Below, in pieces: positions 8,456 to 42,978 of a DNA stretch of 64,000 bases. A program made the position numbers and the translations under genes. Under the pieces are notes generated by a model. The model worked only from the letters and a program-made list of their open reading frames with translations, made no database searches and was not told the DNA's origin. Positions within the stretch are counted from its first letter, which is position 1, and the number at the start of each line of letters is the position of its first letter. Source of the stretch: Dehalococcoidia bacterium (GTDB lineage Bacteria; Chloroflexota; Dehalococcoidia; Lucifugimonadales; JAGWBF01); contig CBDFGE010000003.1 in the NCBI GenBank assembly GCA_965247055.1, forward strand, positions 72,868 to 136,867. The letters are read 5' to 3'.

Positions 8456-8456
8456 C

Positions 8457-16384: not shown

Positions 16385-16445
16385 CCGGGTCGCCTGTCCC
16401 AGGGGGCAGGCGCTGCTCCCCGTACACGTCTGGCTTCAGCCTCTA

Positions 16446-17789
16446 TCAGTCCAGGTTACGCTCCAGGACCCTCTGGAAGGCGCCGACGAAGCTGTCCACC
16501 TCCCCTTCTCCCATCGCGTTGGAGACACAGCCGAACAGGTTGGGGGTGAACAGAACCCCCTCGTTCATCATTCCCCAGAACACCCGCTGCCGGAGGCCGG
16601 CGTCCGCCGCCGCCACATCCCTCCAGTCATGGATAGGCGCGTCCACGAAGTGGATGCCGAACATGGACCAGAGGCCCGTGACCTGAAGGGGCACCTCCAG
16701 GCCGGCGCACACCCCCTGAACCCCCCGCCGCAGCCGGTCCGCGAGGGAGTCGAGGCGCTGGTAGACCTGGGGAGTGAGGTGCTCCAGGGTTATGGAACCC
16801 GCCAGCATGGTCATCGGGTTACCGTTAAAGGTGCCGGCATGGGACACCACCGGCCCGTTGGTGGGGTCGAACTGCTCCATCAGGTCACGGCGTCCGCCGA
16901 AGGCCCCCACTGGGAAGCCCCCTCCGATGATCTTGCCGAAGGCGGTCATGTCGGGGGTGATCCCGTAGTACTCCTGGGCGCCCCCGGGGGCCACGCGGAA
17001 GGTGATCACCTCGTCGAAGATGAGGACCACCCCATTCGCCTTGGTGAACTCCCTCAGCATGGCGAGGAACTCCGGTTCGGCCGCCACCATCCCCGATGAC
17101 CCCCCCAGAGCAGGCTCCAGGATCACGGCGGCCAGGTCCCTCGCGTTCTCCTCAAGTATCTCCCGGGCGGCACCCTGGTTGTTGAAGGGGATCACTACCA
17201 CCTGGTCCAGCACCGCGCTGGGCAGTCCGGCGTTGCCGGGCACGGGGGACGGGCGGAGGGGATCGCCTCCCAATTTGGGATCGTGCCGGACGCTCACGGA
17301 CACCGCGTCGTGGGTCCCGTGGTAGCCACCTTCGCACTTGGCGATCTTGGGCCTGCCCGTCAGCGCCCTGGCCGCCCGGATGGCGTTCATGGTGGCCTCG
17401 GTGCCGGAGTTCGTGAACCGGACCAGCTCCACCGACGGCACCCGCTCGCACAGGAGTCTGGCGAGGCGGACCTGGTGCTCGTTGGGAGCGTTGTACACGA
17501 TACCCCTGGCCGCCTGCTCCTGGACGGCGCGGACCACCGGCGGGTAGGCATTGCCGAGGATGAGGCTGGTCATGTTGCCGATGAAGTCCAGCCGGTCGAC
17601 CCCGTCCACGTCCCGGGCATGGCACCCCTCGCCGGAGTCGATGTAGATGGGATAGGGGGCCCAGAAGATACTGTTGCGGGTGTCGCCCCCGGGCATGTAG
17701 CGCCTGGCCTCCTCCCAGATGTCCCGGGACCTGGGCGTCATCTCTATGTAGCGCTCGATCTCGCCGCCGGACTTCCCTGTTGCGGTCAT
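16446..17789 (-). CDS. Class III aminotransferase (glutamate-1-semialdehyde aminomutase-like)
   Basis: 447-aa ORF with ...LIFDEVITFRVAPGGAQEYYGITPDMTAFGKIIGGGFPVGAFGG..., which is typical. Confidence 0.9.
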   Translation of the reverse strand: MTATGKSGGEIERYIEMTPRSRDIWEEARRYMPGGDTRNSIFWAPYPIYIDSGEGCHARDVDGVDRLDFIGNMTSLILGNAYPPVVRAVQEQAARGIVYNAPNEHQVRLARLLCERVPSVELVRFTNSGTEATMNAIRAARALTGRPKIAKCEGGYHGTHDAVSVSVRHDPKLGGDPLRPSPVPGNAGLPSAVLDQVVVIPFNNQGAAREILEENARDLAAVILEPALGGSSGMVAAEPEFLAMLREFTKANGVVLIFDEVITFRVAPGGAQEYYGITPDMTAFGKIIGGGFPVGAFGGRRDLMEQFDPTNGPVVSHAGTFNGNPMTMLAGSITLEHLTPQVYQRLDSLADRLRRGVQGVCAGLEVPLQVTGLWSMFGIHFVDAPIHDWRDVAAADAGLRQRVFWGMMNEGVLFTPNLFGCVSNAMGEGEVDSFVGAFQRVLERNLD

Positions 17790-20552: not shown

Positions 20553-21335
20553 ATGGCTTCATTGTACGGATTTGACGGTTTAAGCAGACCCATGAGCGGC
20601 TCGGTCTTGTACCGGGAGGTGGTCAAGATTGGCGGTCGGGGCCGGGACGTGGACATCGCCATCGACGATGAGGCCGCTTTCCCGCTGGTGGAGGAGGGGT
20701 TGAGGGGCTGGCTGAACGAAAGGGGCGGCTGGTTCACTGGAGGGGCAGTGACCGTCAACGCCGGGCGCCGCATGCTATGTCCCGAGGAGCTCGGCCGGCT
20801 GAGGAGAATTCTGGAGGAGGAGTACGGGGTCAAAGTCGCCCGGTTCTGGTGTGACGCCGAGGGGCTGACACAGGCGATAGTGGAGGGCGCGGGCGCCCCC
20901 GTAACCCTGGGGGCCGGGCAGCCGACCCCTCCCCCGGTGAGGGAACCCACTCCGCTTCCAGAGGCTCCCCTAGTGATCAAGGGGACCTGCCGTTCCGGGA
21001 CCAGCGTCCACCATCGGGGAGACATAATAGTCCTGGGTGACGTGAACCCCGGGGCCCAGCTCACCGCCACCGGAGATATAGTGGTGCTAGGAAGCCTCCT
21101 AGGGGTCGCCCACGCCGGGGCCGACGGCCCCGACCAGGCCAGGGCGGTTATCGTCGCCCACACCCTGAGGCCACTCCAGCTTCGCATCGGCCTTCATATC
21201 ACCCTGGCCCCACGGGAGAAAAAGCGCCGGTCCACGCCAGCTCGGCCGGAGATCGCGTATGTCAGCGGGCGTTCAATCGTTGTGGTGCCCTTTACGGGAA
21301 AATTCCAAAGGACGGAGGGGAGGGATTTCGGATGA
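20553..21335 (+). CDS. minC: Septum site-determining protein MinC
   Basis: The C-terminal beta-helix repeat ...SVHHRGDIIVLGDVNPGAQLTATGDIVVLGSLLGVAHAG... supports the call. The gene overlaps the minD start by 4 nt. Confidence 0.85.
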   Translation: MASLYGFDGLSRPMSGSVLYREVVKIGGRGRDVDIAIDDEAAFPLVEEGLRGWLNERGGWFTGGAVTVNAGRRMLCPEELGRLRRILEEEYGVKVARFWCDAEGLTQAIVEGAGAPVTLGAGQPTPPPVREPTPLPEAPLVIKGTCRSGTSVHHRGDIIVLGDVNPGAQLTATGDIVVLGSLLGVAHAGADGPDQARAVIVAHTLRPLQLRIGLHITLAPREKKRRSTPARPEIAYVSGRSIVVVPFTGKFQRTEGRDFG

Positions 21336-22150
21336 GAGGGAAAACGTACGTTATCACCTCGGGCAAAGGGGGCGTGGGCAAGACCACGACCACCGCCAAC
21401 CTGGGGGCCGGCCTGGCCCTGAGGGGCAAGCGGGTAGTAGTCATAGACACGGACATCGGCCTCCGCAACCTGGACGTGGTCATGGGCCTGGAGAACCGCA
21501 TCGTCTACGACCTGGTGGATGTGGTTGAGGGAAGGTGTAAACTCCAGCAGGCGCTGATCAGGGACAAGCACGTCAGCGATCTGAACCTTATCCCAGCGGC
21601 TCAGACCCGCGATAAGTCGGCTGTCCAGCCCCACCAGATGAAAGAGCTCTGCGAGCAGCTAAGGCAGGATTTCGAGTACATCCTCATAGACTGCCCGGCC
21701 GGGATAGAGCAGGGCTTCCAGAACGCCATAGCCGCCGCCGACCACGCTATCGTGGTTACCACACCGGAAGTATCGGCCATCCGCGACGCGGACCGGGTGA
21801 TCGGCCTTCTGGAAGCTGCCGAAATCCCGATCCCCGACCTCATCATCAACAGGCTAAGGCCCGGCATGGTGAGGCAGGGCGATATGATGAACCAGAAGGA
21901 CATCCTCGACCTCCTTTCCGTGCGCATGCTGGGCCTTGTACCCGACGACGAGCGGATTATCGTCGCCACCAACAAGGGAGTGCCAGCCGTGCATGACTCC
22001 AAGTCCTGGTCTGGAGAGGCCTTTCGCCGTATCGCTGCCCGTCTGGACGGCGAGGAGAGTCCCTTCCTGAATCTGGAGGACGGTCGCGGGGTCGTAGCAC
22101 GCCTTAAAAGACTTGTTGGGCGGCAAGGGAAGGACTACTCCGATGATTGA
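21332..22150 (+). CDS. minD: Septum site-determining ATPase MinD
   Basis: Deviant Walker A SGKGGVGKTTTTANLG, then ...VVIDTDIGLRNLDVVMGLENRIVYDLVDV... Confidence 0.95.
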   Translation: MRGKTYVITSGKGGVGKTTTTANLGAGLALRGKRVVVIDTDIGLRNLDVVMGLENRIVYDLVDVVEGRCKLQQALIRDKHVSDLNLIPAAQTRDKSAVQPHQMKELCEQLRQDFEYILIDCPAGIEQGFQNAIAAADHAIVVTTPEVSAIRDADRVIGLLEAAEIPIPDLIINRLRPGMVRQGDMMNQKDILDLLSVRMLGLVPDDERIIVATNKGVPAVHDSKSWSGEAFRRIAARLDGEESPFLNLEDGRGVVARLKRLVGRQGKDYSDD

Positions 22151-22418
22151 GCTCCTGAGGCGTGCCCTCCAGAGACACGAGCGGAGTAAGGACGCCGCCA
22201 GACAGCGACTGCAGCTGATCCTGGTCCTGGACAGGATCGGCATATCCACCGAGTCCCTGGACGGCATGAAACGGGACTTGCTGGAGGTAGTATCCAGGTA
22301 CCTGGTGGTGGAAGAGGAGTCCATCGAGCTTGATATGCAGCGCTCGGGTAGCTCCCTGGTCCTCGTGTCCAACATTCAGGTCAAGGATATCGTCCGGGCG
22401 GCCCGAGTAGCCCCGTAG
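22143..22418 (+). CDS. minE: Cell division topological specificity factor MinE
   Basis: MIELLRRAL...ARQRLQLILVLDR...MKRDLLEVVSRYLVVEEESIELD... The ATG overlaps the minD stop (ATGATTGA). The longer track ORF start at 22113 is less likely. Confidence 0.85.
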   Translation: MIELLRRALQRHERSKDAARQRLQLILVLDRIGISTESLDGMKRDLLEVVSRYLVVEEESIELDMQRSGSSLVLVSNIQVKDIVRAARVAP

Positions 22419-22684: not shown

Positions 22685-23572
22685 GTGCTAAATAGGCAGA
22701 GCGGGCATATGCAGCGGCGACAGGACGAGACGCCGCAGGACCCGAGGCCAGGAGATAGGGAGCTAACCGTAGATATCCGTGGTCTGGAGAATCTGGGTGT
22801 TGATCCCCAAGTAATCCAGAGGGACATCGCCCAGGTCGTCTCCAAGTACACACAGGTCAGCCAGGCTTCCGTCGAAGAGCGCGACGGGATCGATAGCTCC
22901 GAGGACGAAGAGCGGGACCGGGGTTCCTTCCTGACCATCTTCACTCCGTGGAGATGGTTCCGGCCACGTCGAGCCCGGAGGCGGCGAGGGTGGCCGTCAC
23001 AGCCAGCCCCACATCTACCCCAGGACCTCCCCATAGAAATAGCCGCACCACCTCAACCTGTACTCCAGCAGCCCAAGGACGGGGCTGCACAGCGAGGTGG
23101 GCCCCGTCGGGAAGCCGTCGACAGAACCACGGAGGCAGCCCACTCGCCGTTTGAGGGAGCCCAAGCCGGGCCTATAGGATCGACCCACCTGCCCCAGGTG
23201 TCCTCTCAACAGACCGGCGGCGGGTCGCCGGGAGTGGGCCAGTCCCATGGCGAGTCCTACCAAGAGCCTATGCGCTCCAGCCGGGAGAGGGAGGATAGCC
23301 CTGTGAATCAGGCTCCACCCCGGGCCGGCTCAGGTAACCCGAGCGGTCCGCCCGCCCCTCCGTCAGGCTCAGACCCGGAGCCGGAGGACGAGGATATCCC
23401 CTCCAACTTTATCATAGACCCGGCGACTTTCGAGATGGCGGAGATGAGCGACAAGGCCAGGGATGAGCTGGAGGCGATCCAGCGAGTCAGAGCAAGGGCG
23501 GCGCACGTGAGGATGCGGGCCCAGGAAGCCATGGCGAGGCCCGTTACACCTTCTCAAAAGCCCTGGCCCTGA
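22685..23572 (+). CDS. Hypothetical protein: MinE-like N-terminal segment plus long disordered Pro/Arg/Glu-rich region
   Basis: 295-aa ORF. Residues ~25-70 (RELTVDIRGLENLGVDPQVIQRDIAQVVSKYTQVSQASVEERDG) align by eye with this window's MinE (...RDLLEVVSRYLVVEEESIE...). The rest is low complexity. Confidence 0.5.
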   Translation: MLNRQSGHMQRRQDETPQDPRPGDRELTVDIRGLENLGVDPQVIQRDIAQVVSKYTQVSQASVEERDGIDSSEDEERDRGSFLTIFTPWRWFRPRRARRRRGWPSQPAPHLPQDLPIEIAAPPQPVLQQPKDGAAQRGGPRREAVDRTTEAAHSPFEGAQAGPIGSTHLPQVSSQQTGGGSPGVGQSHGESYQEPMRSSREREDSPVNQAPPRAGSGNPSGPPAPPSGSDPEPEDEDIPSNFIIDPATFEMAEMSDKARDELEAIQRVRARAAHVRMRAQEAMARPVTPSQKPWP

Positions 23573-23601
23573 ATCCCGACGCCCTGAAGGACCTGGCCGC
23601 C

Positions 23602-25242
23602 ATGATTCGCAGGCTGGAAGAGGCCATCAGGACGGAGGGGGAACTCCGGCAGCTGACCCGCCAGCAAGCGGAGGAGGAGGCCGACTGGGCAAGGCAGCGA
23701 GCGACCGAGGCCATCCTTGGCGCGGTAACGGCGGTGCGCAAGGCAAGCAGCCACGTGAGCCGGGAGCTGGAGGAATCCAGGAGTGTCTCTAAGACCGCTG
23801 AATCCCTCAAGGGTTCGGCCCAGGACCACCTGAGCCGCGCCCAGTCCATGAAGGCCGGAGCGGAATCTCTGGTGCGGCAGGAGGCACGCAAACTCCTGGA
23901 GCGGCCTCTCACCGAAGGGTCGGTGCCCCCCTTGCGTGCAACCCGACCGGCCCGACCCATCTCCGAAACGTTGCCACCAGCCCCCGCGAGCAGGACACCC
24001 GCTCCACCTCCCACCGTATCCCCCGGCGTCGATACCTCACAGGCACCACCACTAAGTCCGGTAGCGGAGCCGGCTCCCGCTCAACCCGCTGCCGTGTCCC
24101 CATCCCCCGCCGCTGACACGGGCCAGGCTCTACCACTGCCTCCCGCAAGGGAACCGGCCGCCACTCCACCCCCCACCATGTCCCAGGGCGTCGATGCCGG
24201 GCAGACCCCTACCACTCCTCTACCGAGGGAGCCGGGCCGGGGAGATGACCAGCCGGTGGGACCAGTGTCGGATAGGCTTAACAGTGAGGAACAGACACCA
24301 GCGCGGCGGGATAAGGCAGACATAGAGTCCCCCGTTGACCTGGCAGCGGCCCTCAACGAGTTCCTGAACTCGTTGGAGAGGTCCGAGCCGGCCCCCCTCG
24401 TAGAACAGGCTCCCACGGAACAGGCTCCAACCGTTGCAGCGCCTCGCGAAGGTCTGTTCCTGGACAACCTGGACTTTTCGAGCGCAGAACTCGAGGTCAC
24501 TCAGGAGCAGATGCCCAGGGACGAGGAGGTGAGGCCCGGTCGCGATGTGGAAGCTCCCGCGCCACCGCCCAGCCCGCGGCGACAGGATACCGAGACGGCC
24601 GAGGAAGAGTTCAACGACGATCTGCTGTCGCAGCTCAGAGATTCCCTGGCCAGCATACGGACACCGGGGCAGCCCTTGAACCTTTCGCCCACGGATATCA
24701 TGGAGGAACTCCCAGTCTCCAGTCCGCCTGCTCGCGCACAGGGTACCGCTGGCGCCGCAGCGCAATTCGAGGCTCCCCCTGCAGTAGACCAGCTTCGGAC
24801 CTCGCCACCTACGCGGCAGAGTCCAGAAGACCTGGGGCATGGCTTGACCGGGGGGCGGCAGGCGTCCACTCCACCCGTGTCCCCTCCGATGCCTTCCATC
24901 GACCAGCCACCGCCCTTGCCCGAGCCGGCACCGCGGGTCCCCGAGTCCGCCCAGTCGGCACCCCTCGCGCCAAGCTACAAGGGCACCCTCCACATCGTGT
25001 TCGCACCTGCGGCCGACGCGGCTACCCTATCCTTCTTCTGGGACATTGTGGACACCGTAGCTGGGGTCGGCAAGGTGGTAGCGCAGACATCCCTTCCTGA
25101 CGGCTCGGGGCATGAGTTCACACTGGACCTGGGCAACGACCCCCTGGACCTAGAGCAGCTGAGAACGCGTATTCCCGGGGCAGACATCATGGCCCTGGGC
25201 CCGGACCGGCTGCGCATACACCTTGCGCCGATGGCCGACTAG
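23602..25242 (+). CDS. Hypothetical protein: N-terminal coiled coil, long Pro-rich middle, small globular C-terminal domain
   Basis: 546-aa ORF. The N-terminus is MIRRLEEAIRTEGELRQLTRQQAEEEADW... and the C-terminus is ...YKGTLHIVFAPAADAATLSFFWDIVDTVAGVGKVV... No family was recognised. Confidence 0.55.
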   Translation: MIRRLEEAIRTEGELRQLTRQQAEEEADWARQRATEAILGAVTAVRKASSHVSRELEESRSVSKTAESLKGSAQDHLSRAQSMKAGAESLVRQEARKLLERPLTEGSVPPLRATRPARPISETLPPAPASRTPAPPPTVSPGVDTSQAPPLSPVAEPAPAQPAAVSPSPAADTGQALPLPPAREPAATPPPTMSQGVDAGQTPTTPLPREPGRGDDQPVGPVSDRLNSEEQTPARRDKADIESPVDLAAALNEFLNSLERSEPAPLVEQAPTEQAPTVAAPREGLFLDNLDFSSAELEVTQEQMPRDEEVRPGRDVEAPAPPPSPRRQDTETAEEEFNDDLLSQLRDSLASIRTPGQPLNLSPTDIMEELPVSSPPARAQGTAGAAAQFEAPPAVDQLRTSPPTRQSPEDLGHGLTGGRQASTPPVSPPMPSIDQPPPLPEPAPRVPESAQSAPLAPSYKGTLHIVFAPAADAATLSFFWDIVDTVAGVGKVVAQTSLPDGSGHEFTLDLGNDPLDLEQLRTRIPGADIMALGPDRLRIHLAPMAD

Positions 25243-25280: not shown

Positions 25281-25952
25281 CTACTGGCTGTAGCTGTCTT
25301 GGATGTAACCCAGCACCGCCGCCACCCTGGGATGAACGCGGTCGGTCTGGGCGACGTTTAGCTCCTGATAGATGGCGTTGATATAGTTTTCAACCGACTT
25401 GTGCCCGAGCACCAGTTTCTCCGCTATCCCGGCGTTGTTATACCCCTGGGCCATCAGTGCCAGTACCTCAAGCTGTCGAGGGGTCAGCCGTGAAGCGAAG
25501 GAGCCCTGGCGGGGCCTGAGACCGGTCACCACCGCCGGGTCCATGACCACGAACCCGGCGGCGGAGCCTTCGATAGCTCTGCCCAGCGCCGCAGCATCGC
25601 CAACCGACTGCTTCAGCAGATAGGACCACCCGGAGGCCTCCTCCGCCGACAGACTGCTGATATACTCCTTGTCTTTGTGCAGCGAGAGGATGACTATTCA
25701 GATCTGAGGAAATTCGTTTCGTATCATGCGACCCGCTTCTATGCCGTTGGGCTCGCTGCCCAACTCAATGTCCATGAGCACCACGTTGGGCTGTATCTCC
25801 TTGACCATGTGAATCGCTTCGTTGCCGCTGCCTACGGCACCCACAACCCTGAGATTAGGGAATGAAGAGAGGGCTATCTTCAGCATGTCGCGAAAAAGGC
25901 CTTCGTCCTCGACGATTATGACGTCAATCATATCTTCGTTCCACTGTGTCAT
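25281..25952 (-). pseudogene. NarL/FixJ-type response regulator (REC + LuxR HTH) interrupted by an in-frame TGA at 25698-25700
   Basis: The interval is 672 nt, or 224 codons, in one frame. It reads MTQWNEDMIDVIIVEDEGLFRDML...VVLMDIELG...NEFPQI*IVILSLHKDKEYISSL...LTPRQLEVLALMAQGYNNAGIAEKLVLGHKSVENYINAIYQEL... The ORF track shows it as two ORFs (25698..25952 and 25281..25550). Confidence 0.85.
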
Positions 25953-26401
25953 AGTTCAGGTCGTCCTCCACCCTCGCTGGTTCCATGGCCCGTTCACGGC
26001 CTACGGGACAATTCTATAAATCCCACAGCACAAAAGCAACTACCTCACCAACTCCAGATCGCGTCCCCGGATTAGATACGTCGGTCTGTCCGCCCGGCGT
26101 GCTCCCACCCTCCAGCTAGGTCCGGCAAGGGCCGATTCGTGGTGTTTCCCCCCTTGCCATATGGGTGCTTCCTCCCGGCATCACGGAGATATCCCCCCCA
26201 TCAGGGTGTTTTCACCGTCACCTGTGACAGGGAGACATCCACCTACTGGGGTGGTAGTCCTGTGTCTCGCCAGCCACCTCTAATCATAAACTTTTTAACA
26301 GGCAAACCTTGTGGCCCAGGTGTGGTGGAAATCCGGGGCATCGAAAAGGAGGGAGAGCGCACATGTAGTTCGGTTACACACCTCTGGGACGCCATCAAAG
26401 A

Positions 26402-26418
26402 CCCAGGTGTCACCTGGG
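26402..26418. promoter_or_regulatory. 17-bp perfect palindrome CCCAGGTG-T-CACCTGGG, 33 nt upstream of the first archaellin start
   Basis: Read directly. Related copies are CCCAGGTGT at 26315-26323 and GTCACCTGTGAC at 26217-26228. It could be an operator or a 5'-UTR hairpin. Confidence 0.4.
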
Positions 26419-26450
26419 CAGGCAAAGACCAAAGAGGAGGGAAGTTCCAA

Positions 26451-27050
26451 ATGGCCAATCTGACTACCAAATTTAGCAGCATGATACCCAAGAAATTGGG
26501 GGACCCACGGGGCATCACCGGCCTGGAGACGGCCATCGTCCTGATCGCCTTCGTGGTGGTCTCCTCTGTGTTCGCCTTCGCCGCACTGTCCACCGGCCTC
26601 TTCTCCAGCGACAAATCGAAGGAGGCCATCATCGCCGGCCTGGGCGAGGCCAGCGGCACCCTGGAGGTCCGCGGCTCCATAGTAGCCAAGACCAACAGCA
26701 CCGGCGACGTCATCGACGAGCTCGTGGTTCAGGTCGCTAACGCCGCAGGCGGCGCCGCTGTCAACCTGATCCCAGGCAAGACCATCATCACCTACACCGA
26801 CTCGAACCAGATGGTCACCCTGGTAAGCGGCGACTTCACCACCATAGGGCTGGGGGCCGCCGACTCCGACAAGCTGGTCGAGCCGGGTGAGATGTATGAG
26901 ATAAAGCTCACCGGCCTGCAGGCCAAGCTCAATCCGGACCTCAAGGCCGACCAGATTTTCACCATTGAGCTGAAGCCCCCGCTGGGAGCCGTTGTTCGCG
27001 TGCAGCGCACCACCCCGGTCACTCTGGACACCGTCATGGACCTTAACTAG
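26451..27050 (+). CDS. arlB: Archaellin (archaeal-type flagellin) with class III signal peptide, copy 1
   Basis: MANLTTKFSSMIPKKLGDPRG|ITGLETAIVLIAFVVVSSVFAFAALSTGLFSSDKSKE... This is a short basic leader ending in RG followed by the archaellin hydrophobic N-terminus. GGAGG lies ~10 nt upstream of the ATG at 26451. The upstream part of track ORF 26139.. is judged non-coding. Confidence 0.9.
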   Translation: MANLTTKFSSMIPKKLGDPRGITGLETAIVLIAFVVVSSVFAFAALSTGLFSSDKSKEAIIAGLGEASGTLEVRGSIVAKTNSTGDVIDELVVQVANAAGGAAVNLIPGKTIITYTDSNQMVTLVSGDFTTIGLGAADSDKLVEPGEMYEIKLTGLQAKLNPDLKADQIFTIELKPPLGAVVRVQRTTPVTLDTVMDLN

Positions 27051-27103
27051 CCATGACACAGAACCGTCCAACGACAAGAGCAAATCTATCCGGAGGGAAC
27101 AAC

Positions 27104-27679
27104 ATGAGAAACATGACAAAAGTGTGGAGTGACCGTAGGGGCATAACCGGACTGGAGACGGCCATCGTGCTGATCGCCTTCGTGGTGGTCTCCTCGGTGT
27201 TCGCCTTCGCCGCACTGTCCACCGGCCTCTTCTCCAGCGACAAGTCCAAGGAGACCATCAACGCCGGCCTCACCGAGGCCAGCGGCACCCTGGAGATTCG
27301 GGGCTCCATTATCGCCAAGGCCAACAGCACCGGTGACGCCATAGACGAGATCTGGTTTCAGGTCGCCAACGCCGCCGGCGGAGGGGCCGTGGACCTGACC
27401 CCGGGTGAGACCCTGATCACCTATGCGGATGCGGACCAGGCGATCACCCTGGTAAGCGGTGACTTCACCGTCACCGGCCTGGGCAGCGCCGACTCCGACA
27501 AGCTGGTCGAGCCCGGCGAGATGTATGAGGTAAAGATCGCCAACATGGTCTCCAAGCTGAACCCCGACCTGACCAGCGATATACCGTTCGTGGTCTCGAT
27601 CAAACCCCCCGTGGGAGCGGTGGTAACCATCGCTCGCAGGACCCCGGTCTCCATGAACAAGATCATGGACCTGAACTAA
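27104..27679 (+). CDS. arlB: Archaellin with class III signal peptide, copy 2 (tandem paralogue)
   Basis: MRNMTKVWSDRRG|ITGLETAIVLIAFVVVSSVFAFAALSTGLFSSDKSKE... The first ~37 mature residues are identical to copy 1 and the rest is roughly two-thirds identical by eye. GGAGGG lies upstream of the ATG at 27104. Confidence 0.9.
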   Translation: MRNMTKVWSDRRGITGLETAIVLIAFVVVSSVFAFAALSTGLFSSDKSKETINAGLTEASGTLEIRGSIIAKANSTGDAIDEIWFQVANAAGGGAVDLTPGETLITYADADQAITLVSGDFTVTGLGSADSDKLVEPGEMYEVKIANMVSKLNPDLTSDIPFVVSIKPPVGAVVTIARRTPVSMNKIMDLN

Positions 27680-27746
27680 GGATCGGGCAAGGACTGGCCC
27701 GTCAGTGAACTAGAACAATCCACGGAGATGAATCAAGCTCTCCCTT

Positions 27747-27802
27747 CAGCCGGCCCTGGTGCGGGACCCTGAGTCCCGGGGGACTAGCCCCAGGGCCGGC
27801 TG
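27747..27802 (+). promoter_or_regulatory. Intercistronic stem-loop between the archaellin genes and the accessory genes
   Basis: Perfect 13-bp arms CAGCCGGCCCTGG (27747-27759) and CCAGGGCCGGCTG (27790-27802) enclose an inner hairpin GGGAC-CCTGA-GTCCC (27763-27777). There is no U-tract after it. Confidence 0.5.
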
Positions 27803-27833
27803 ATAGATAGTAAACGCACAGGGAGGTACGGCA

Positions 27834-29468
27834 GTGCCAAGCTCGGACAAGCGCCTAGAAGTCCTGGAAGACGAGCTGAAATTGCTGAAGGGGGAGGTGA
27901 AACGGACTCTGGTTGACCTGAGGGCCTTCGTTATGCGAGAGGACTCCCCTCTCAACGACCGCCTGACCATGGGCCCCGCTCCGGCGCCCGTTGCCCAGGA
28001 AAGGAACGCTGCGGCAGACCCCCGAATGGCGGTCATGGAAGAGGAGCTGAGGGTCCTCAGGCAGCAAAAGGCGGAACCTTCCGATCCAACCCCCTCCGCA
28101 CCACCTTCCAACCATGGTGACATTGCCATGGCGATGCTCCAGGACCAGCTGAAAGCTCAGTCCACATCGCCTACGGGCCAGAACGACAAGGCTATGGACA
28201 TCCTCCAGGAACAGCTGAAAGCCCAGATGTCAGAGAGGGCGAACTTCATTCCCAATGCCCAGACGCCTCCTCAGGGCGATCCCCCTCAGACGGCCCAGGT
28301 CGCCACCGAATCCAGGCCCGCCGTGCAGGAGACGTCAAGCCCTTCTTCCCAGAGCCATGAGAACACGGTGGAACAGGACCCACCTAAAGAGCAGCTACGC
28401 CGGCGTACCCAGCCGGACGCAGAGGAGCGCCGCCGGCCGGAAGACGACCAGCGTCCACCCAAAGAGGTCCGGACGCGCAGGCGGAAGAGCGACTATCCCC
28501 ATGACGGCTCTACCAACGGCCGGCCCCAGGAGTATGCCGAAGAGGCCTATCCCGACGAACCGCGGCGGGAGGGGGCCGAGACCGACTACTTTGACCCTTC
28601 TGAAAGGGGGCGCTACCAAGAGATGAGAGCTCAGAGTCCCTACGAGAGCAACGGCAACGGGCACCACCGGGACTACGCGTACATCGAAGAGGAGTATTAC
28701 CCCGACGCTCCGCCGGAGGATGTGGGACCACCGCGGGAGGCTGGGAAGGGTAGGGACACCCTCGACGTCAACATGATCAGCAACCTGGTGCGCTGGGCCA
28801 TTCAGGCGAAACGGCGGGTGGGTCACGATAGGCTCATGGATCTGCTGGAGCTGTACCTGTGCTCCGGCCACCATTCCAGGGAGCTGAAAGAGATCATAAG
28901 CTACATCTGCAACGTCGTGGAAGAGGAGCCGCTGGACTACGAGCCCGACCCCGCCCACGAGAGTGTGGACCTCATACACCAGCTGCACGGCATCCTGTTC
29001 AGTGCGGTGCTGGGCACTACCTCCGCCCAGGGCTCCTCGCTAACGGAGGCAGCGGACATGCGCATCGGCCAGGTAACGGGTGCCCTGTCCATAGGCTCCA
29101 CCTCAGCCATCGACTCAGGAAACGGCACCAACATTACGGTCACGGGAGATAACACGGGGGCTATGTCTTACGGCAATTTCTCGCAGGTGGACGTGCTGAC
29201 CAAATACACCGATACGACTGGTGACCAGGTCGCAAAGCGCCTGGCCTACGTCTGCAAGCAGCTCTGCGGCGACCCGGGAGACCCCGGGGACAACCAGTGG
29301 ACTATTACCGGCATCAACCCGGACTCTTACAATCCCAAGATGTGGGACCCCGACGAGACCTTGACCATCGTACTGCGGGTCGCGCCCAAAGTGAAGACCG
29401 GGACCTCGGGGACGGCCGCCGTGGGCGCTCCCGGCGGGGTCTCCGACTCGGCATATTTCAAGAACTGA
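27834..29468 (+). CDS. Archaellum accessory protein: coiled coil + charged low-complexity linker + ArlD/E-like segment + ArlF/G-like beta-rich C-terminus (apparent fusion)
   Basis: 544-aa ORF with a GTG start after GGGAGG. ...DVNMISNLVRWAIQAKRRVGHDRLMDLLELYLCSGHHSRELKEII... resembles the conserved FlaD/E domain as I recall it. The C-terminus ...GNGTNITVTGDNTGAMSYGNFSQVDVL...NPKMWDPDETLTIVLRV... resembles FlaF/FlaG soluble domains. The domain calls need HMM confirmation. Confidence 0.6.
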   Translation: MPSSDKRLEVLEDELKLLKGEVKRTLVDLRAFVMREDSPLNDRLTMGPAPAPVAQERNAAADPRMAVMEEELRVLRQQKAEPSDPTPSAPPSNHGDIAMAMLQDQLKAQSTSPTGQNDKAMDILQEQLKAQMSERANFIPNAQTPPQGDPPQTAQVATESRPAVQETSSPSSQSHENTVEQDPPKEQLRRRTQPDAEERRRPEDDQRPPKEVRTRRRKSDYPHDGSTNGRPQEYAEEAYPDEPRREGAETDYFDPSERGRYQEMRAQSPYESNGNGHHRDYAYIEEEYYPDAPPEDVGPPREAGKGRDTLDVNMISNLVRWAIQAKRRVGHDRLMDLLELYLCSGHHSRELKEIISYICNVVEEEPLDYEPDPAHESVDLIHQLHGILFSAVLGTTSAQGSSLTEAADMRIGQVTGALSIGSTSAIDSGNGTNITVTGDNTGAMSYGNFSQVDVLTKYTDTTGDQVAKRLAYVCKQLCGDPGDPGDNQWTITGINPDSYNPKMWDPDETLTIVLRVAPKVKTGTSGTAAVGAPGGVSDSAYFKN

Positions 29469-29578
29469 CGCTTGCCAATGACTGATCACTGTTTCGATAT
29501 CGGTGGGCCTCGGGCCCAGCGGTGGGCCGTTGGGGGGCCTCGTCACAGGTAACTCGATAAAGCGGAAGGGGGCATAGA

Positions 29579-30295
29579 ATGACCACCTCATTTCCACAGG
29601 CGGCGACCGTTATTTCCACGGGCAGCGGGGAGATAGACAAGAAGCTGGGCGGCGGCATACCGATAGGCTCGCTCTCTCTTATAGAAGGGCAGTCCGACGC
29701 GGGCAAGAGCGTCCTGTCCCAACACCTGGCCTTCGGCGCCCTCAACTCCGATGTGGGCGTCGCCTACTACTCCACCGAGAACACCGTCAAGAGTCTTCTC
29801 ACCCAGATGGCTTCCCTCAGTCTGGAGGTAACCGACCACTTCCTGGTAGACCGGCTGCGCATCTATCCCTTGCAGATTTCCAGCAAGGAGGCCGACGCGA
29901 AGGCCCTGTTCAACCTGCTGGCAACCCACATAGAGCGCCTTCCCGAGACCTTCAAGGTCATCATAGTGGACTCGGTGACCAACATCGTTACCCACAGCCA
30001 GGCGGACACCATCATAGACTTCTTTCTCGCCTGCAAGGAGGCCTGCGACGATGGCAGGACCGTGTTTATGGTAGTCCACTCCTACGCCTTCGACGAGGGT
30101 ATGCTGATCCGGGTCCGCTCCCTGTGCGACGCCCACGTGAGGCTGAGGCTGGAGGAAGTGGGAGAGCGACTGGTCAAGATCATGGAGGTGAGCAAGGTAC
30201 GCAACGCCGAGCGAAGCACCGGTAACATCATCAGCTTCGACGTCGAGCCCGGGATGGGCATGAAGATTATCCCGATAATCAAGGCGAAAGCGTAG
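29579..30295 (+). CDS. arlH: ArlH/FlaH, KaiC/RecA-like ATP-binding archaellum protein
   Basis: 238-aa ORF: ...ISTGSGEIDKKLGGGIPIGSLSLIEGQSDAGKSVLSQHL... (Walker A) and ...FKVIIVDSVTN... (Walker B-like). Size and position before the ArlI ATPase fit ArlH. Confidence 0.85.
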   Translation: MTTSFPQAATVISTGSGEIDKKLGGGIPIGSLSLIEGQSDAGKSVLSQHLAFGALNSDVGVAYYSTENTVKSLLTQMASLSLEVTDHFLVDRLRIYPLQISSKEADAKALFNLLATHIERLPETFKVIIVDSVTNIVTHSQADTIIDFFLACKEACDDGRTVFMVVHSYAFDEGMLIRVRSLCDAHVRLRLEEVGERLVKIMEVSKVRNAERSTGNIISFDVEPGMGMKIIPIIKAKA

Positions 30296-32038
30296 GTGGT
30301 AGCTCAGACCGTACCCTTCAAGACAGAACAGGCGGACCACAACCACAACGGCACCGACTCCAAGTGTCCCGTGTTCCGCATGCTTCCCAAGAAGCTGCGG
30401 CCCGAGGCCAAGGAGAAGCCGCACCTGTGGGAGTACCTCCACGGCTTGCCGCTGGAGAAGATAGGCGTACCCAAGTACCACGAGACACTGGACCGGTCCA
30501 TGGGAGACTGGAAGAGCCCGAACCTCATATATCCGGTGGGCAATGGGATGTTTATTCATATCTTGCCTGACCCCAGGGATGCCAGGAACTTCTATATCGC
30601 CATCGAGCCGGGCATGGGCCAGGACCTATCCTCCCAGTTGGACGAGGTGGAGACCAGGCTGGTGGACTACGTGGGCGACCTGGAGAGCTCCGAAGAGGAC
30701 GGGGCCAAGCGCACCCAGCTGCTGCTAACGAGCCTGGACAAGGTGTGCACCGTCCGCAAGAGCGCGGGGAAGGCTCCCAAAAAACGCAAGAAGGGAGGAG
30801 CTAAGGACTCCGACGGCAAGGGCAAGGTGGTCCTTAGCCCCCAAGAGATGACGACTCTTCGTTACCTGATGGTCAGGGACAAAGAGGGGATGGGGCCCCT
30901 TGACCCGCTAATCCACGACATATACATCGAGGATATCAGCTGTAGCGGCCTTGGGGAGATGTTCGTTGAGCACAAGATCTTCAAGGGCCTCAAGGCCAGC
31001 GTCACCTTCCGCACCCATGAGGAGCTGGATACCTTCGTCATACGGCTGTCGGAGAAGATAGGGAAGCCGGTGACCTTCCGCGATCCCATCGTCGATGCCA
31101 CCCTTCCCGACGGCTCCCGTATAAACATCGTCTTCGGAGGCGACCTGTCCAAACGGGGCAGCAACTTCACCATTCGTAAGTTCGCCTCCACCCCCATGAG
31201 CATCCTTCAGCTCGTCGGGTTCAAGACCCTCTCCTACGAGATGGCGGCCTATCTCTCCCTGGCGCTGGTACACGGAATGAACATGTTCGTCTCCGGCGAA
31301 ACTGCGTCGGGCAAGACCACCCTGATGAACGCGCTTACCACCTTCATTGTCCCGACGGGCAAGATCGTAAGCAGAGAGGACACCGCCGAGCTGCAGGTGC
31401 CCCATCGCAACTGGATCCGAGAGATAGTACGGGGCAGCAGCAAGTCCACCTCCGACTCGGCGGTCACCATGTTCGATCTCCTCAAGGCGGCCCTGAGGCA
31501 GCGGCCCAACGAGATCATAATAGGCGAAATTCGGGGCGAAGAAGGGGCCATCGCCTTCCAGGCCATGCAGACGGGCCACGCCGCCATGGCTACTTTCCAC
31601 GCCGCGTCGGTGGAGAAGCTAATCCAGAGGCTCACGGGCAATCCGATCAACATCCCCAAGACCTACGTGGACAACCTCAACCTGGTATGTATACAGAGCA
31701 TGGTCCGGCTCCCCGACGGTAGAGAGGGGAGGCGGGTAATGAGCATCAACGAGATCGTGGGCTACGACTCCTCCAGCGACTCCTTCTCCTTCATCGAGGT
31801 GTTCAGGTGGAACCCCGTCGACGATTCCTTTGAGTTCAGCGGCTACATGAACAGCTACCTCCTGGAGGAACGGATCGCCATGATGATGGGCATCCCCCCG
31901 ACGAAGAAAAGGACCATCTACAACGAGCTGACCCGAAGGGCGAACATTCTGAAAAAACTTCACGAGCAGAAGGTTGAAGATTTCTATGAGCTCCACCAAG
32001 TCCTCGCCCAAGCATACGCAGAGGGTGTCTTCCGATAG
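30296..32038 (+). CDS. arlI: ArlI/FlaI, archaellum motor/assembly ATPase (type II/IV secretion ATPase superfamily)
   Basis: 580-aa ORF with Walker A SGETASGKTT, then ...RQRPNEIIIGEIRGEEGAIAFQAMQTGHAAMATFHA... (Asp/His boxes). The N-terminal domain ...NLIYPVGNGMFIHILPDPRDARNFYIAIEPGM... is typical of FlaI. The GTG start directly follows the arlH stop, and the ATG at 30380 is an alternative start. Confidence 0.9.
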   Translation: MVAQTVPFKTEQADHNHNGTDSKCPVFRMLPKKLRPEAKEKPHLWEYLHGLPLEKIGVPKYHETLDRSMGDWKSPNLIYPVGNGMFIHILPDPRDARNFYIAIEPGMGQDLSSQLDEVETRLVDYVGDLESSEEDGAKRTQLLLTSLDKVCTVRKSAGKAPKKRKKGGAKDSDGKGKVVLSPQEMTTLRYLMVRDKEGMGPLDPLIHDIYIEDISCSGLGEMFVEHKIFKGLKASVTFRTHEELDTFVIRLSEKIGKPVTFRDPIVDATLPDGSRINIVFGGDLSKRGSNFTIRKFASTPMSILQLVGFKTLSYEMAAYLSLALVHGMNMFVSGETASGKTTLMNALTTFIVPTGKIVSREDTAELQVPHRNWIREIVRGSSKSTSDSAVTMFDLLKAALRQRPNEIIIGEIRGEEGAIAFQAMQTGHAAMATFHAASVEKLIQRLTGNPINIPKTYVDNLNLVCIQSMVRLPDGREGRRVMSINEIVGYDSSSDSFSFIEVFRWNPVDDSFEFSGYMNSYLLEERIAMMMGIPPTKKRTIYNELTRRANILKKLHEQKVEDFYELHQVLAQAYAEGVFR

Positions 32039-33473
32039 CGCCGTACTGAGCTTCGACCTATTCTCGAATCTCACGTACATGTCGGCACTCTCTACCGGGG
32101 AAGTGCCGCGGGATGTTATCTTCCAGCACGCAATAGCACAGCCCTACAAGACGGCCAGCTACTTCGAACAGGTATACTTGCTGACCAAGCGGCTGGGGTT
32201 CGAGTACAGCCGCAGCTTCCAGCTTGTCTCCAGGAAGGCGGGAGCCGCGACTGTAAAAAGCCTGCTGCTCCGATTCGCCGGCTCCATATCCTCCGGCGAA
32301 TCGGAGCACGAGTTCCTGGCCCAGGAAGCAAGGGTGGAGCGAGAGCAGTATATTAACGAGTACCAGAGGAGCCTGGAGACCCTACAGAAGTGGGGGGACG
32401 CCTATGCGGCCCTGATGGTGTCCACCTCCCTGATCGTGGTGGTGTCCATGATCTCCACCATGCTGTACGACATCGGCAATACTTTCGTCTTCATGCTCAC
32501 TGGGACCATGTTCTTCATGTCCTTTTTTGGCGCCTGGATCATAAAAAAGACGGCGCCCTACGAGGTGACGACCTACAAGAACCGCAAAGGACCCAAAGAA
32601 CGCCGGAGGGCCGTGCAGCTCATGCTCGTGCTGGGTCCCCCGGGGCTACTAATGGGCCTGTACCTGGCCGTCGCCGGGAACCTGGGACTGGGCTTCCTTG
32701 CACTCGGCATCAGCATTCTGTCGGCGGGTCTCTACGCCTACATGGACGATCTCAAGGTATCCAGTGTGGACCAGGAGCTGGCCAAGTTCCTTCGCTCTCT
32801 GGGAAGCGTGACCGAGTCCCTGGGAACAACCCTCACCAAGGCCATGACCAAAATAGACCGGCGCTCCCTGGGCAACCTTGAGCCATACATCCAGAGACTG
32901 CAATCTCGTCTGGCCAGCCAGCTTAGCCCCAAACTCTGCTGGGACAGGTTTATGGACGAGACGGGCAGTGAGCTGGTGCACCGCTCCACGAGAATGTTCG
33001 TGGACGGGGCCGCCCTGGGGGGGAGCCCAGAACGGGTGGGACGCATCGCCTCGGACTACGCTATGAGCATCGCGTTGCTCCGTGCCAAGCGTCACGTAAC
33101 GGCCTTGCCCTTTGCCTACCTGTGCGTACCCCTTCACGGGGCCATGAGCGCCCTCCTGATATTCGTGCTCGAGATCATGACATCATTTAGCACCAGGCTG
33201 GGGGACGCCAACGATGAGCTGGCAACCCAGGGAGCCGGCCTAGCTGCGCAGATACCCGACCTCCCCATGTTCCAGTCCAGGGACATGCAACAAACGGCCA
33301 TGCTCACCCTTGGCGCCGTTATGGTCCTTACGCTAACAAACGCCATGGCCGCCAAGTTCGCCACCGGGGGGCACGCCCTGAAATTGCTGTTTTACGGCAG
33401 CATCATGTTGACCGTCTCGGGGATCAACCTTACCCTGATCCCGCCGGTCGCCCAGGGGCTGCTGACCAGATGA
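31986..33473 (+). CDS. arlJ: ArlJ/FlaJ, polytopic archaellum platform protein (T2SS-F-like)
   Basis: ...FDLFSNLTYMSALSTGEVPRDVIFQHAI... followed by multiple TM helices and a duplicated T2SSF-like architecture. The start was chosen at ATG 31986 (the track uses TTG 31974). It overlaps the arlI 3' end by ~53 nt. Confidence 0.85.
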   Translation: MSSTKSSPKHTQRVSSDSAVLSFDLFSNLTYMSALSTGEVPRDVIFQHAIAQPYKTASYFEQVYLLTKRLGFEYSRSFQLVSRKAGAATVKSLLLRFAGSISSGESEHEFLAQEARVEREQYINEYQRSLETLQKWGDAYAALMVSTSLIVVVSMISTMLYDIGNTFVFMLTGTMFFMSFFGAWIIKKTAPYEVTTYKNRKGPKERRRAVQLMLVLGPPGLLMGLYLAVAGNLGLGFLALGISILSAGLYAYMDDLKVSSVDQELAKFLRSLGSVTESLGTTLTKAMTKIDRRSLGNLEPYIQRLQSRLASQLSPKLCWDRFMDETGSELVHRSTRMFVDGAALGGSPERVGRIASDYAMSIALLRAKRHVTALPFAYLCVPLHGAMSALLIFVLEIMTSFSTRLGDANDELATQGAGLAAQIPDLPMFQSRDMQQTAMLTLGAVMVLTLTNAMAAKFATGGHALKLLFYGSIMLTVSGINLTLIPPVAQGLLTR

Positions 33474-33545
33474 CCCACACGTTGACAGGAGGAAAACTCG
33501 TCCCGCCCGGCACCGAAAGACTATCATGATGAGGAGGTAACCTGA

Positions 33546-34001
33546 ATGGCGTTTCTAAGTAAGTTGAAGAAGCAGAAGGACCCGCTGGAAGGCTTGATCG
33601 ACGACGAAGACTCCATGGAATGGGACTCGCCCTCGGATTCCGAACCGGAGCCCGAGGCGCCCAGCGCAAAGGCCGGTTTCAAAGTAGCAAGCATCAAGCT
33701 GAAACAGCCTGCCGATGATGAAGAGGAAGAAGAAGAAGAGGAGGATGGGGAAGATAGATCCCCAGGGGACGAAGAGGAACCTGACGACGAGGACACCCAG
33801 ACCGGCTCCTCGGAAGAACGGCTGGAGGGCACGAAGGGAGACGAGGCCACCTCCATCGGTAACTCTCTACTGAACATCTTCGAAGAGGAGGAGGTGGTGG
33901 ACCAGCGCCTCGAAAGCCTCAACTCCTGGGTGGAGGACGTGGATGCGGAGGAGTTGGTGGGGGAGCTGAACGCCCTCATGGAAGAGCTGGAGAGGATCTA
34001 G
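33546..34001 (+). CDS. Highly acidic hypothetical protein, last gene of the arl cluster
   Basis: 151-aa ORF on the same strand, 72 nt after arlJ. It has a long Asp/Glu run (...DDEEEEEEEEDGEDRSPGDEEEPDDED...) and a helical C-terminus ...LLNIFEEEEVVDQRLESLNSWVEDVDAEELVGELNALMEELERI. Confidence 0.6.
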   Translation: MAFLSKLKKQKDPLEGLIDDEDSMEWDSPSDSEPEPEAPSAKAGFKVASIKLKQPADDEEEEEEEEDGEDRSPGDEEEPDDEDTQTGSSEERLEGTKGDEATSIGNSLLNIFEEEEVVDQRLESLNSWVEDVDAEELVGELNALMEELERI

Positions 34002-41300: not shown

Positions 41301-41375
41301 GCCGAGGTAGCTCAGGGGTAGAGCAGTGGACTGAAAATCCACGTGTCGTCGGTTCGATTCCGACCCTCGGCACCA
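41301..41375 (+). tRNA. tRNA-Phe (anticodon GAA), CCA encoded
   Basis: The acceptor stem is GCCGAGG/CCTCGGC. The anticodon stem GTGGA/TCCAC has loop CTGAAAA. T-arm GGTTCGATTCC is present and the 3' end is ACCA. Confidence 0.95.
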
Positions 41376-41400
41376 GGGCCCGCACGTAGGGCCTCGGCGA

Positions 41401-41475
41401 GCGGAAGTGGCTCAGTGGTAGAGCATCTCCTTGCCAAGGAGAGGGTCGTGGGTTCGAATCCCATCTTCCGCTCCA
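41401..41475 (+). tRNA. tRNA-Gly (anticodon GCC), CCA encoded
   Basis: The acceptor stem is GCGGAAG/CTTCCGC. The anticodon stem CTCCT/AGGAG has loop TGCCAAG. T-arm GGTTCGAATCC is present and the 3' end is TCCA. Confidence 0.95.
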
Positions 41476-42783: not shown

Positions 42784-42978
42784 ATCGCGTCCCTTCGGCC
42801 ATCTTTTCCTCAACCGGATTGGGCGGCCTCGGCGGGACCGTGCTAGGGGATGACTTTCGTTCGTTTGCCTCCTGCCTAACGGATTCCCATCGGCGCTCTG
42901 AATCTTCAGCCTCTTCGTGTCTGCCGAGCTTCTTTAGAGCGGATTGGAGTCGGATGGCAATAGTGGACACCAAACCTT

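Follow-up and report, generated by a model that had tools for sequence, protein, structure and literature searches.

We describe an archaellum (arl) gene cluster in a stretch of 64,000 nucleotides from contig CBDFGE010000003.1 of a Dehalococcoidia bacterium; this whole stretch is called the window, and positions refer to it unless another locus is named. A block of genes on one strand (+, 26451-33473) encodes two archaellins, ArlH, ArlI and ArlJ, and a gene for a NarL-type regulator lies upstream on the opposite strand. Between the archaellin genes and arlH there is no arlG, and the soluble domain of ArlF, devoid of its membrane helix, is fused in frame to an ArlCDE-like protein. Because arlG is absent and the helix-less ArlF domain is tethered to a cytoplasmic scaffold, no stator is expected to form, and if the lesions are real, this genuine archaellum locus was probably inactivated recently. 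The locus is compared below with three close relatives, L082 (JGI Ga0137829_12374713), L081 (ENA ERZ26167216) and L001 (CBDFKU010000020.1 of a Dehalococcoidia metagenome-assembled genome, MAG). Its parts are the following.

25281-25952, minus strand: gene of a NarL/LuxR-type response regulator, with Pfam Response_reg (PF00072) and GerE (PF00196) on its two halves, divergent from arlB1
25953-26450, no strand assigned: divergent regulatory region, with non-coding blocks conserved in L081 (5062-5650)
26451-27050, plus strand: arlB1, archaellin; Pfam Arch_flagellin (PF01917) with 75.9 bits (cut-off 29.5) and a TIGR02537 match
27053-27679, plus strand: arlB2, second archaellin; Arch_flagellin (PF01917) with 83.3 bits (cut-off 29.5) and a TIGR02537 match
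27834-29468, plus strand: open reading frame (ORF) of 544 amino acids, fusion of an arlCDE-like gene and arlF, recognized by comparison with relatives
27834-28997, plus strand: ArlCDE-like scaffold part of the fusion, with orthologues of 398-460 amino acids
28998-29468, plus strand: soluble domain of ArlF, fused in frame, without the first ~21 residues (transmembrane helix) of ArlF
29579-30295, plus strand: arlH, KaiC/RecA-like ATP-binding protein; NF004723 (FlaH) with 277 bits (cut-off 194) and Pfam KaiC
30296-32038, plus strand: arlI, archaellum assembly and rotation ATPase; equivalog NF058587 with 654.7 bits (cut-off 550)
31974-33473, plus strand: arlJ, polytopic membrane platform protein; three ArlJ/FlaJ models take the first places, with matches over the full length but under their curated cut-offs
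33546-34001, plus strand: very acidic protein of 151 amino acids, directly 3' of arlJ and conserved in the sub-lineage

The 544-amino-acid ORF consists of two parts that are separate proteins in the relatives. The first has an N-terminal coiled coil, a long disordered linker rich in P, E, R and Q, and an ArlD/E-like helical domain that ends with ...VDLIHQLHGIL; stand-alone orthologues (P0002-P0008, 398-460 amino acids) span 72% of the ORF. Neither the 544-amino-acid protein nor its Chloroflexota orthologues matched Pfam Arch_fla_DE or any NCBIfam model, and a profile of the family gave nothing meaningful against the PDB. Comparison of this Chloroflexota family with the syntenic archaeal proteins by hhalign gave a probability of 98.4% (E 8e-15), and those archaeal proteins themselves score only 15-20.6 bits on Arch_fla_DE, under the cut-off of 21. 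Judged from these profiles, "ArlCDE-like" is a reasonable label, not one proven by a curated model.

The second part is the soluble domain of ArlF. A hidden Markov model (HMM) of ArlF matched it with 142.8 bits, at model positions 21-167 only; positions 1-20, the helix, are absent. From residue ~20 on it is 51% (L001), 63% (L081) and 71% (L082) identical to stand-alone ArlF, and the alignment displays the absent helix while the conserved residues of the domain are kept. A sequence search of the PDB had no match for the ArlF-like domain, and the fold search alone succeeded: with a moderate-confidence AlphaFold2 model of this part (pLDDT 59.8), the soluble domain of FlaF from Sulfolobus acidocaldarius (4p94/4zbh) made up the three best PDB matches (Foldseek E 3e-5). 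The preliminary description of this DNA, made from the sequence alone, had seen an ArlD/E-like and an ArlF/G-like segment in this protein; the ArlD/E-like and ArlF parts are there, ArlG is not, and the protein appears to be a fusion generated by deletion.

At about 28997/28998 the junction reads ...HQLHGIL|FSAVLGTTSAQ.... In the relatives, ArlCDE continues as ...QLHGILAG... with 9-34 more residues, and ArlF opens with the transmembrane helix MSIVI.GAFV..TFL.VA.LTFGTVLGTT. In the window, ...VDLIHQLHGIL is followed in frame by FSAVLGTTSAQGSSL..., where ArlF sets in at about its residue 22. Absent are hence the last residues of ArlCDE, the entire arlG and the membrane helix of ArlF. Between archaellin genes and arlH, L001, L081 and L082 all have a separate ArlCDE-like gene (about 400 amino acids), arlG (157-161 amino acids) and arlF (160-177 amino acids), and the interval equivalent to the missing one measures about 645 bp in L001, 784 bp in L082 and 960 bp in L081. 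A tblastn search of the 64-kb window with ArlG from L001 had no match, and a six-frame search of the same 64 kb with an ArlG HMM built from 65 loci gave only 16.7 bits, on the paralogous ArlF domain.

A separate arlG ORF is present in 65 of 81 related loci. The fusion, by contrast, is a singleton in a collection of 5.8 billion proteins, where no other protein spans both parts, and it is unique also among 84 loci; all 14 database homologues of its C-terminal part are stand-alone proteins of 142-183 amino acids. The junction peptide QLHGILFSAVLGTT, used as a degenerate query, has no match in JGI metagenome contigs.

The archaellum cluster of Chloroflexota is of the arl2 type, with arlB copies, arlCDE-like, arlG, arlF, arlH, arlI and arlJ, and would have been acquired once by the phylum from Methanotecta-like Euryarchaeota. 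In the relatives, a prepilin peptidase encoded elsewhere would cut the archaellins after RG, ArlI and ArlJ, together with ArlH, would assemble and rotate the filament at the expense of ATP, and ArlG and ArlF would form an extracytoplasmic stator, with the ArlCDE-like protein as cytoplasmic scaffold. ArlG and ArlF are described as a pseudoperiplasmic stator, in which an ArlG filament is capped and anchored by ArlF (PMC8978795). In the window, a deletion of roughly 0.65-0.95 kb probably fused arlCDE, at codon ~388, in frame with codon ~22 of arlF. All of arlG and the membrane helix of ArlF would have gone with it, so that the ArlF domain would be stranded in the cytoplasm and a stator could not form. 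Deletions of arlF and arlG reportedly abolish archaellation in Sulfolobus and Methanococcus. By analogy, we predict from the absent arlG and the anchorless ArlF that a rotating filament is no longer built and that swimming fails; the locus would then be a young pseudo-operon, with the nonsense codon in the regulator gene as a second lesion.

The deletion is apparently young. The branch of the ArlF domain has a length of 0.144 in the window and 0.138 in L082, the branches of ArlH, ArlI, ArlJ and the ArlD/E domain are likewise comparable between the two, and no arl gene is accelerated. Because these branch lengths are equal, the arl genes should have been under normal constraint until recently.

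The second lesion is in the divergent regulator. Its receiver domain and its GerE helix-turn-helix share one frame, which is split by an in-frame TGA at 25698-25700 (codon 85; ...NEFPQI*IVILSLH...). Since the intact orthologue in L081 (216 amino acids, 78% identity) has a glycine at that codon (PKIGIVILS), the TGA is read as a GGA-to-TGA change. Reading of TGA as glycine (genetic code 25) is ruled out because TGA ends 17 of the 38 window genes, minC and minD included. Similar regulators are encoded on the opposite strand 5' of the archaellin genes in L081, L006, L039 and L036. The coordinates given in the preliminary description (from 25281 on) include this regulator, whose gene carries the in-frame TGA.

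Between the regulator gene and arlB1, a promoter-like TTGCTT-17-TAGAAT on the minus strand (about 26005-26045) faces the regulator gene, three GGTGYTTYC direct repeats lie upstream of arlB1 (26141, 26164 and 26205; stretch 26141-26216), and a GGAGG ribosome-binding site precedes arlB1. The blocks GACAATTCTATAAATC..AAAAGCAAC and GGTGTTTTC..GGAG.CATCC..ACTG.GGTGG.AGTCCTGTGT are kept in L081 despite a mean column identity of 73%, and the promoter-like element and the repeats are likewise shared with L081. From their sequence and position, TTGCTT-17-TAGAAT may be a sigma-70-like promoter of the regulator gene and the repeats a putative operator; the repeats and the other conserved blocks are candidate sites for two-component input to the arl operon, whose expression is probably controlled by this bacterial NarL-type regulator. 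When 25.2-34.4 kb was scanned generically for promoters and terminators, fewer sites turned up than in shuffled controls, and none was informative.

All other arl genes are intact, and their identity is clear. The window proteins, taken from a listing of ORFs with translations, were scanned against Pfam and NCBIfam profiles at curated cut-offs. Both archaellins matched TIGR02537, the archaellin/type IV pilin N-terminal domain. ArlB1 has a class III signal peptide (...DPRG|ITGLETAIVLIAFVVV) and is 66-70% identical to archaellins of L081 and L001. The arlB2 gene may actually begin with the ATG at 27101. The best solved structure for archaellin 2 is 9i5h (183-amino-acid "Flagellin", E 6.7e-33), aligned over the full mature length; residue 1 of 9i5h falls on I31 of archaellin 2, the predicted mature N-terminus directly after RG (cleavage context RG|ITGLETAIV). 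The 9i5h chain, which starts with ITALETAIILIAFVVV, would be the mature ArlB of Litorilinea aerophila, judging by the N-terminus described in PMC12488501. No window ORF scanned matched Peptidase_A24, the class III signal peptidase; the prepilin peptidase is normally encoded outside the arl locus (PMC12488501).

ArlH has the Walker A motif GQSDAGKS and is 71-77% identical to its counterparts in L001, L081 and L082; on the second ArlH model, NF052589, it scores 213.8 bits, marginally under the cut-off of 215. The match of ArlI to NF058587 spans residues 46-578 of 580. ArlJ matches NF004703 (ArlJ/FlaJ) over residues 20-495 of 499 (E 4.2e-125), at 418 bits under the curated cut-off of 570, and Pfam T2SSF at 26.6 bits, just over the cut-off of 25.2. 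It is syntenic and 52% identical to ArlJ of the more distant locus L002 and 67-69% to that of L082 and L001. Its gene likely starts with the ATG at 31986 and overlaps the 3' end of arlI, as it does in L082. The preliminary description had thus correctly placed six proteins of an archaellum here, and the motifs it listed (GQSDAGKS, GETASGKTT, GEIRGEE, TFHA and RG|ITGLETAIVLIAFVVV) are all present; its statement that most of the core set is encoded holds for the archaellins, ArlH, ArlI and ArlJ, and the set has no arlG.

A scan for ArlI in one genome per GTDB species gave 590 relatives. The best 80 of them are overwhelmingly Chloroflexota, mostly Dehalococcoidia MAGs, and the same cluster is found on long single Dehalococcoidia contigs (L001, 545 kb; L002, 1.38 Mb). 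Archaeal matches, from Archaeoglobi, Methanosarcinales and 'Candidatus Methanoxibalbensis', are 53-56% identical. In a neighbour-joining tree, a simple distance method here used without support values, ArlI of the window forms a group with L001 and L081 (77-78% identity), to which L002 is sister; all lie within one monophyletic Chloroflexota clade beside Archaeoglobi, Methanoxibalbensis and Methanosarcinales. This placement agrees with PMC12488501. L082 is an equally close relative (ArlF 71%, ArlI 76% identical).

Archaella in Chloroflexota have already been published, and the locus in the window is a vertically inherited member of this known cluster. arl2-type clusters, derived from Methanotecta-like Euryarchaeota, are encoded in 243 of 3,780 Chloroflexota genomes, and L. 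aerophila assembles an archaellum filament and swims with it, as reported in 2025 together with a cryo-EM structure (PMC12488501); flaB copies and flaGFHIJ were reported in 2023 from SAR202 isolates (PMC10444878). The archaellum in a bacterial chromosome, as first proposed for this DNA, is therefore borne out by the profile searches, the ArlI tree and the synteny conserved in Chloroflexota, but the rarity ascribed to it (only a few Chloroflexota) is not.

Several points weigh against an inactivated locus. The visible sequence is 64 kb long, and a second arlG/arlF pair or a complete locus may lie elsewhere in the genome. A collapsed assembly or a minority structural variant may feign the deletion, and a base-call error the TGA. 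The reading frame runs on through the fusion and the remaining arl genes are undamaged, as would equally be expected of a fusion that is tolerated or selected. That ArlG is essential is known from archaea and is carried over to Chloroflexota by analogy. Finally, eight other loci with enough flanking sequence have no ArlG/ArlF detectable by HMMs, most of them in the Anaerolineae clade. HMM detection is imperfect, and these eight are probably explained by divergence or a different gene order; on their account, the claim that no locus but that of the window lacks arlG was softened.

Of the alternatives, the one that fares best, while still unlikely, is a functional locus: either arlG together with an arlF of full length, or a second cluster with all its genes, would be encoded elsewhere, and the fusion would be an ArlCDE scaffold with a harmless C-terminal appendage. 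That arlB1, arlB2, arlH, arlI and arlJ are intact and evolve no faster than in L082 is what one would expect then, although a very recent deletion explains the equal branch lengths just as well. There are also precedents, since ten genomes have two arl loci and arlF is duplicated in some Chloroflexota (PMC12488501), long ArlF-like paralogues occur in other loci such as L021, L005 and L002, and the prepilin peptidase is always encoded elsewhere anyway. However, arlG lies between arlCDE and arlF in every close relative for which the interval is available (L082, L081 and L001), nothing ArlG-like is found in 64 kb, and the neighbouring regulator gene also carries a nonsense codon.

Less likely again is that errors of assembly or sequencing, or a minority variant, account for both the deletion and the stop codon, and that the true arlCDE-arlG-arlF interval and the regulator gene are intact. 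The source is evidently a metagenome-type contig, the fusion forms a cluster of one protein, from a single contig of 329 kb, and the window has two more in-frame or frameshift lesions; moreover, probable error-derived breaks are seen in related long-read MAGs (an in-frame stop in arlCDE and a split arlJ in L001), and L081 has a coverage of 5.5x. A clean in-frame loss of about 0.7-0.9 kb between non-repetitive sequences is, however, atypical of assembler or base-caller errors, and the junction shows no evident repeat that would be prone to collapse. The assembly seems to be of high quality, since flanking bacterial metabolic enzymes match their Pfam models end to end, and more than 30 neighbouring genes do so without frameshifts.

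It is hardly to be expected that the rearranged locus works as it is, with the ArlG/ArlF stator dispensed with in favour of a stator-less or differently anchored archaellum or a non-rotating pilus; in such a system, the proline-rich protein of 546 amino acids encoded upstream of the regulator gene and the acidic protein of 151 amino acids might take over anchoring. Even more improbable is a selected innovation, an archaellum variant with an ArlCDE-ArlF fusion and no ArlG whose anchoring or regulation would differ in the monoderm envelope of a bacterium. It could be argued that the frame and the conserved residues of the ArlF domain are preserved and that, according to PMC13319060, Chloroflexota are without the archaeal S-layer to which ArlF binds, so that anchoring of the stator must differ in bacteria. 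Yet a one-in-three chance of staying in frame is unremarkable, the fusion is unique among the proteins and loci searched, arlG and arlF are separate genes in close relatives whose envelope is of the same type, and an ArlF domain that has lost its transmembrane helix cannot get to the outside.

As far as the tools used allow, an archaeal/bacterial chimera, or a bacterial Tad/type IV pilus system in place of an archaellum, is refuted. In support of these one could cite a dip in G+C of about 5 points and the match of ArlI to the generic T2SSE family. However, ArlI scores above the cut-off of its own equivalog and only 153.6 bits on the TadA model (cut-off 373) and 55 bits on PilB (cut-off 676), with GspE also far under its cut-off, and ArlH and archaellin families are present, as the preliminary description had argued against a Tad or type IV pilus. 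The chimeric join that it had wanted excluded is unlikely: the bacterial NarL-type regulator is syntenic with the arl genes in independent assemblies (78% identity in L081; also L006, L039 and L036), and ArlI groups with hundreds of Chloroflexota homologues, some of them on contigs of 0.5-1.4 Mb such as L001 and L002. G+C is 0.58-0.62 across 25-34 kb and 0.64-0.68 in the flanks, and G+C at third codon positions (GC3) of the cluster is 0.74-0.82, like that of its neighbours. Because GC3 equals that of the neighbours, the dip comes from first codon positions, that is, from amino-acid composition, and it fits an old, ameliorated acquisition. The earlier impression that there is no compositional break was therefore mistaken in overlooking the dip, whereas the old, ameliorated transfer deduced from it agrees with GC3.

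Comparison with known systems sets off what is peculiar to the window. The archaellum of L. aerophila (Sivabalasarma et al., Nat Microbiol 2025, PMC12488501) is built from the same families, ArlB, ArlCDE-like, ArlF, ArlH, ArlI and ArlJ, in the same arl2-type order, belongs to the same Chloroflexota clade of ArlI and ArlJ, and also relies on a prepilin peptidase encoded outside the locus. Structure 9i5h, probably that of its filament, and archaellin 2 have the helix ITxLETAIxLIAFVVV in common, as well as part of an acidic motif, D..L.E.GE. L. aerophila belongs to the Caldilineae, whereas the nearest relatives of the window are Dehalococcoidia MAGs. Unlike in L. aerophila, there is neither pilN/pilO nor a stand-alone CheY-like gene in the window locus, which has the divergent NarL-type regulator instead; arlG is missing, and an anchorless ArlF is fused to ArlCDE. 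Function has been shown in L. aerophila and is doubtful here.

'Candidatus Lucifugimonas marina' of the SAR202 group (Lim et al., Nat Commun 2023, PMC10444878) is closer in that it belongs to the class Dehalococcoidia and has archaellin genes with GFHIJ-type genes after them. Its cultures showed no archaella (PMC10444878), which is a precedent for an apparently silent or inactive locus. It differs in having many more archaellin copies (six flaB) and separate flaG and flaF, and SAR202-type ArlI, e.g. of L033, is 58% identical to ArlI of the window and falls into a different sub-clade.

The loci most alike are L082, L081 and L001, with the same gene order and 76-78% (ArlI), 71-77% (ArlH) and 66-72% (archaellins) identity. 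L081 and L001 also encode the acidic protein after arlJ, and L081 in addition the NarL-type regulator (78%) and the P-rich upstream protein. In contrast to the window, all three have arlCDE, arlG and a helix-bearing arlF as separate genes, and L081 and L001 have three archaellins; the contig of L082 starts inside arlCDE, so that its archaellins are not visible. The archaeal arl2 clusters of Methanotecta (Archaeoglobus, Methanosarcinales and 'Candidatus Methanoxibalbensis') share the order of G before F, 53-56% identity in ArlI and a homologous ArlD/E-like C-terminal domain, but differ in their archaeal host, in shorter scaffolds (216-421 amino acids) without the P/E/R-rich linker, and in the lack of an adjacent bacterial two-component regulator.

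arl loci are interrupted or rearranged in two relatives too. In L081, a DDE transposase gene splits arlJ (13149-16622). In L002, a transposase pair (7978-9101) directly precedes arlH, no arlB-arlF was seen at locus positions 4,000-10,000, the part examined on that side, and an ArlF-like protein of 678 amino acids is encoded downstream on the opposite strand. Many Dehalococcoidales-type loci have a second, long ArlF-like gene (about 350-550 amino acids) beside the normal arlF of ~170 amino acids, which is probably the "arlF duplication" of PMC12488501. It is found at these places.

L036, L023, L011, L052, L020, L022, L030, L017, L018 and L010, about 5.2-6.5 kb: second long ArlF-like gene
L021, 7288-8937: second long ArlF-like gene
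L005, 7561-8958: second long ArlF-like gene

A further variation concerns the ArlCDE-like proteins. In the relatives P0006, P0009 and P0029, an adenylate/guanylate cyclase domain (PF00211) lies where the disordered linker is otherwise found, with the conserved coiled coil on its N-terminal side and the ArlD/E-like domain on its C-terminal side; the only Pfam match in the ArlCDE-like set is this cyclase domain, in two variants. This suggests that some lineages have an archaellum scaffold with a direct link to cyclic-nucleotide signalling.

The acidic protein encoded after arlJ has no Pfam or NCBIfam match. Homologues are encoded in the same place in L081 (16716-17162, 44% identity) and L001 (13209-13697, 37%), and an ORF of 229 amino acids in the same place in L002 (13146-13835) is alike in its acidic composition and C-terminal motif, as judged by eye without alignment. 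Throughout this Dehalococcoidia sub-clade, arlJ is followed by a very acidic protein of 150-230 amino acids whose helix-like motif at the C-terminus is conserved, and which is a candidate for a lineage-specific accessory protein of the archaellum. Further downstream, synteny with L001 was expected, since an ORF of ~520 amino acids follows the acidic protein in both, but the amidohydrolase of the window has no match among the ORFs of L001.

The cluster is embedded in bacterial genes; minCDE, the CCA-encoding tRNAs and the Liv transporter, named as bacterial markers in the preliminary description, were confirmed. The features outside the arl locus are listed here.

20553-22418, strand not assigned: MinC_C, MinD-type ATPase and MinE, by domain matches
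23602-25242, plus strand: proline-rich protein of 546 amino acids, whose N-terminus and C-terminal ~200 amino acids match L081 ORFs beside the regulator gene (51-62% identity)
41301-41475, strand not assigned: tRNA-Phe and tRNA-Gly, both CCA-encoding, behind TTGACT-17-TACAAT
41638-53692 and 59488-60700, strand not assigned: stretches of mobile DNA with transposase and recombinase genes
54.4-59.3 kb, strand not assigned: Liv-type ABC transporter, by family matches
59488-60700: frameshifted IS256-like transposase gene
62982-63908: luciferase-like (F420-type) monooxygenase, with an in-frame TAG at 63267-63269 (...DMPYYD*VILARSL...)

Between minE and the regulator gene (22685-25242), an ORF of 295 amino acids and that of the proline-rich protein are both without a family match in Pfam or NCBIfam. 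Of the two, only the proline-rich protein has homologues; they are fragmented and lie beside the regulator gene in L081, and none was found at other loci. The proline-rich protein is thus a neighbour of the arl locus that is specific to the lineage.

The window has at least eight transposase genes. Genes for transposases of the IS5, IS3, IS256 and IS110 types and a serine-recombinase fragment are spread over 41.6-53.7 and 59.5-60.7 kb. An IS5-like transposase gene directly follows the tRNA pair. Two inverted IS3-like copies (43315-44531, minus strand, and 48742-49775, plus strand) flank the serine-recombinase fragment and a SIMPL/DUF541 protein of 761 amino acids, a segment that may be a composite transposon. 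An intact IS256-like gene (50020-51231), an IS110 fragment and a third IS3-like element are also present. The TAG in the monooxygenase gene is a second nonsense-type lesion in the window beside that of the response regulator. With its transposases, the broken monooxygenase gene and the frameshifted IS256-like transposase gene, the genome is prone to decay.

Chloroflexota archaella are an established case of a whole nanomachine crossing domains, and one more locus adds little alone. What is new here is the arlG-less fusion of arlCDE and arlF next to a regulator with a nonsense mutation, which would be an acquired archaellum caught early in decay: a snapshot of loss by a single in-frame deletion that took arlG and the ArlF anchor, plus one nonsense codon in the regulator, with every other component still undamaged. 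Provided that the lesions are real, nature has supplied an arlG-null allele in a bacterium. Taken together with the two relatives whose loci are interrupted by insertion sequences or rearranged, it would then be a hint that this terrestrial sub-lineage of Dehalococcoidia can perhaps do without an archaellum, and censuses based on the presence of arlB, arlH, arlI and arlJ may count loci that do not work. The conserved, divergent NarL-type regulator is a candidate route by which a bacterial host wired its own control onto an archaeal operon.

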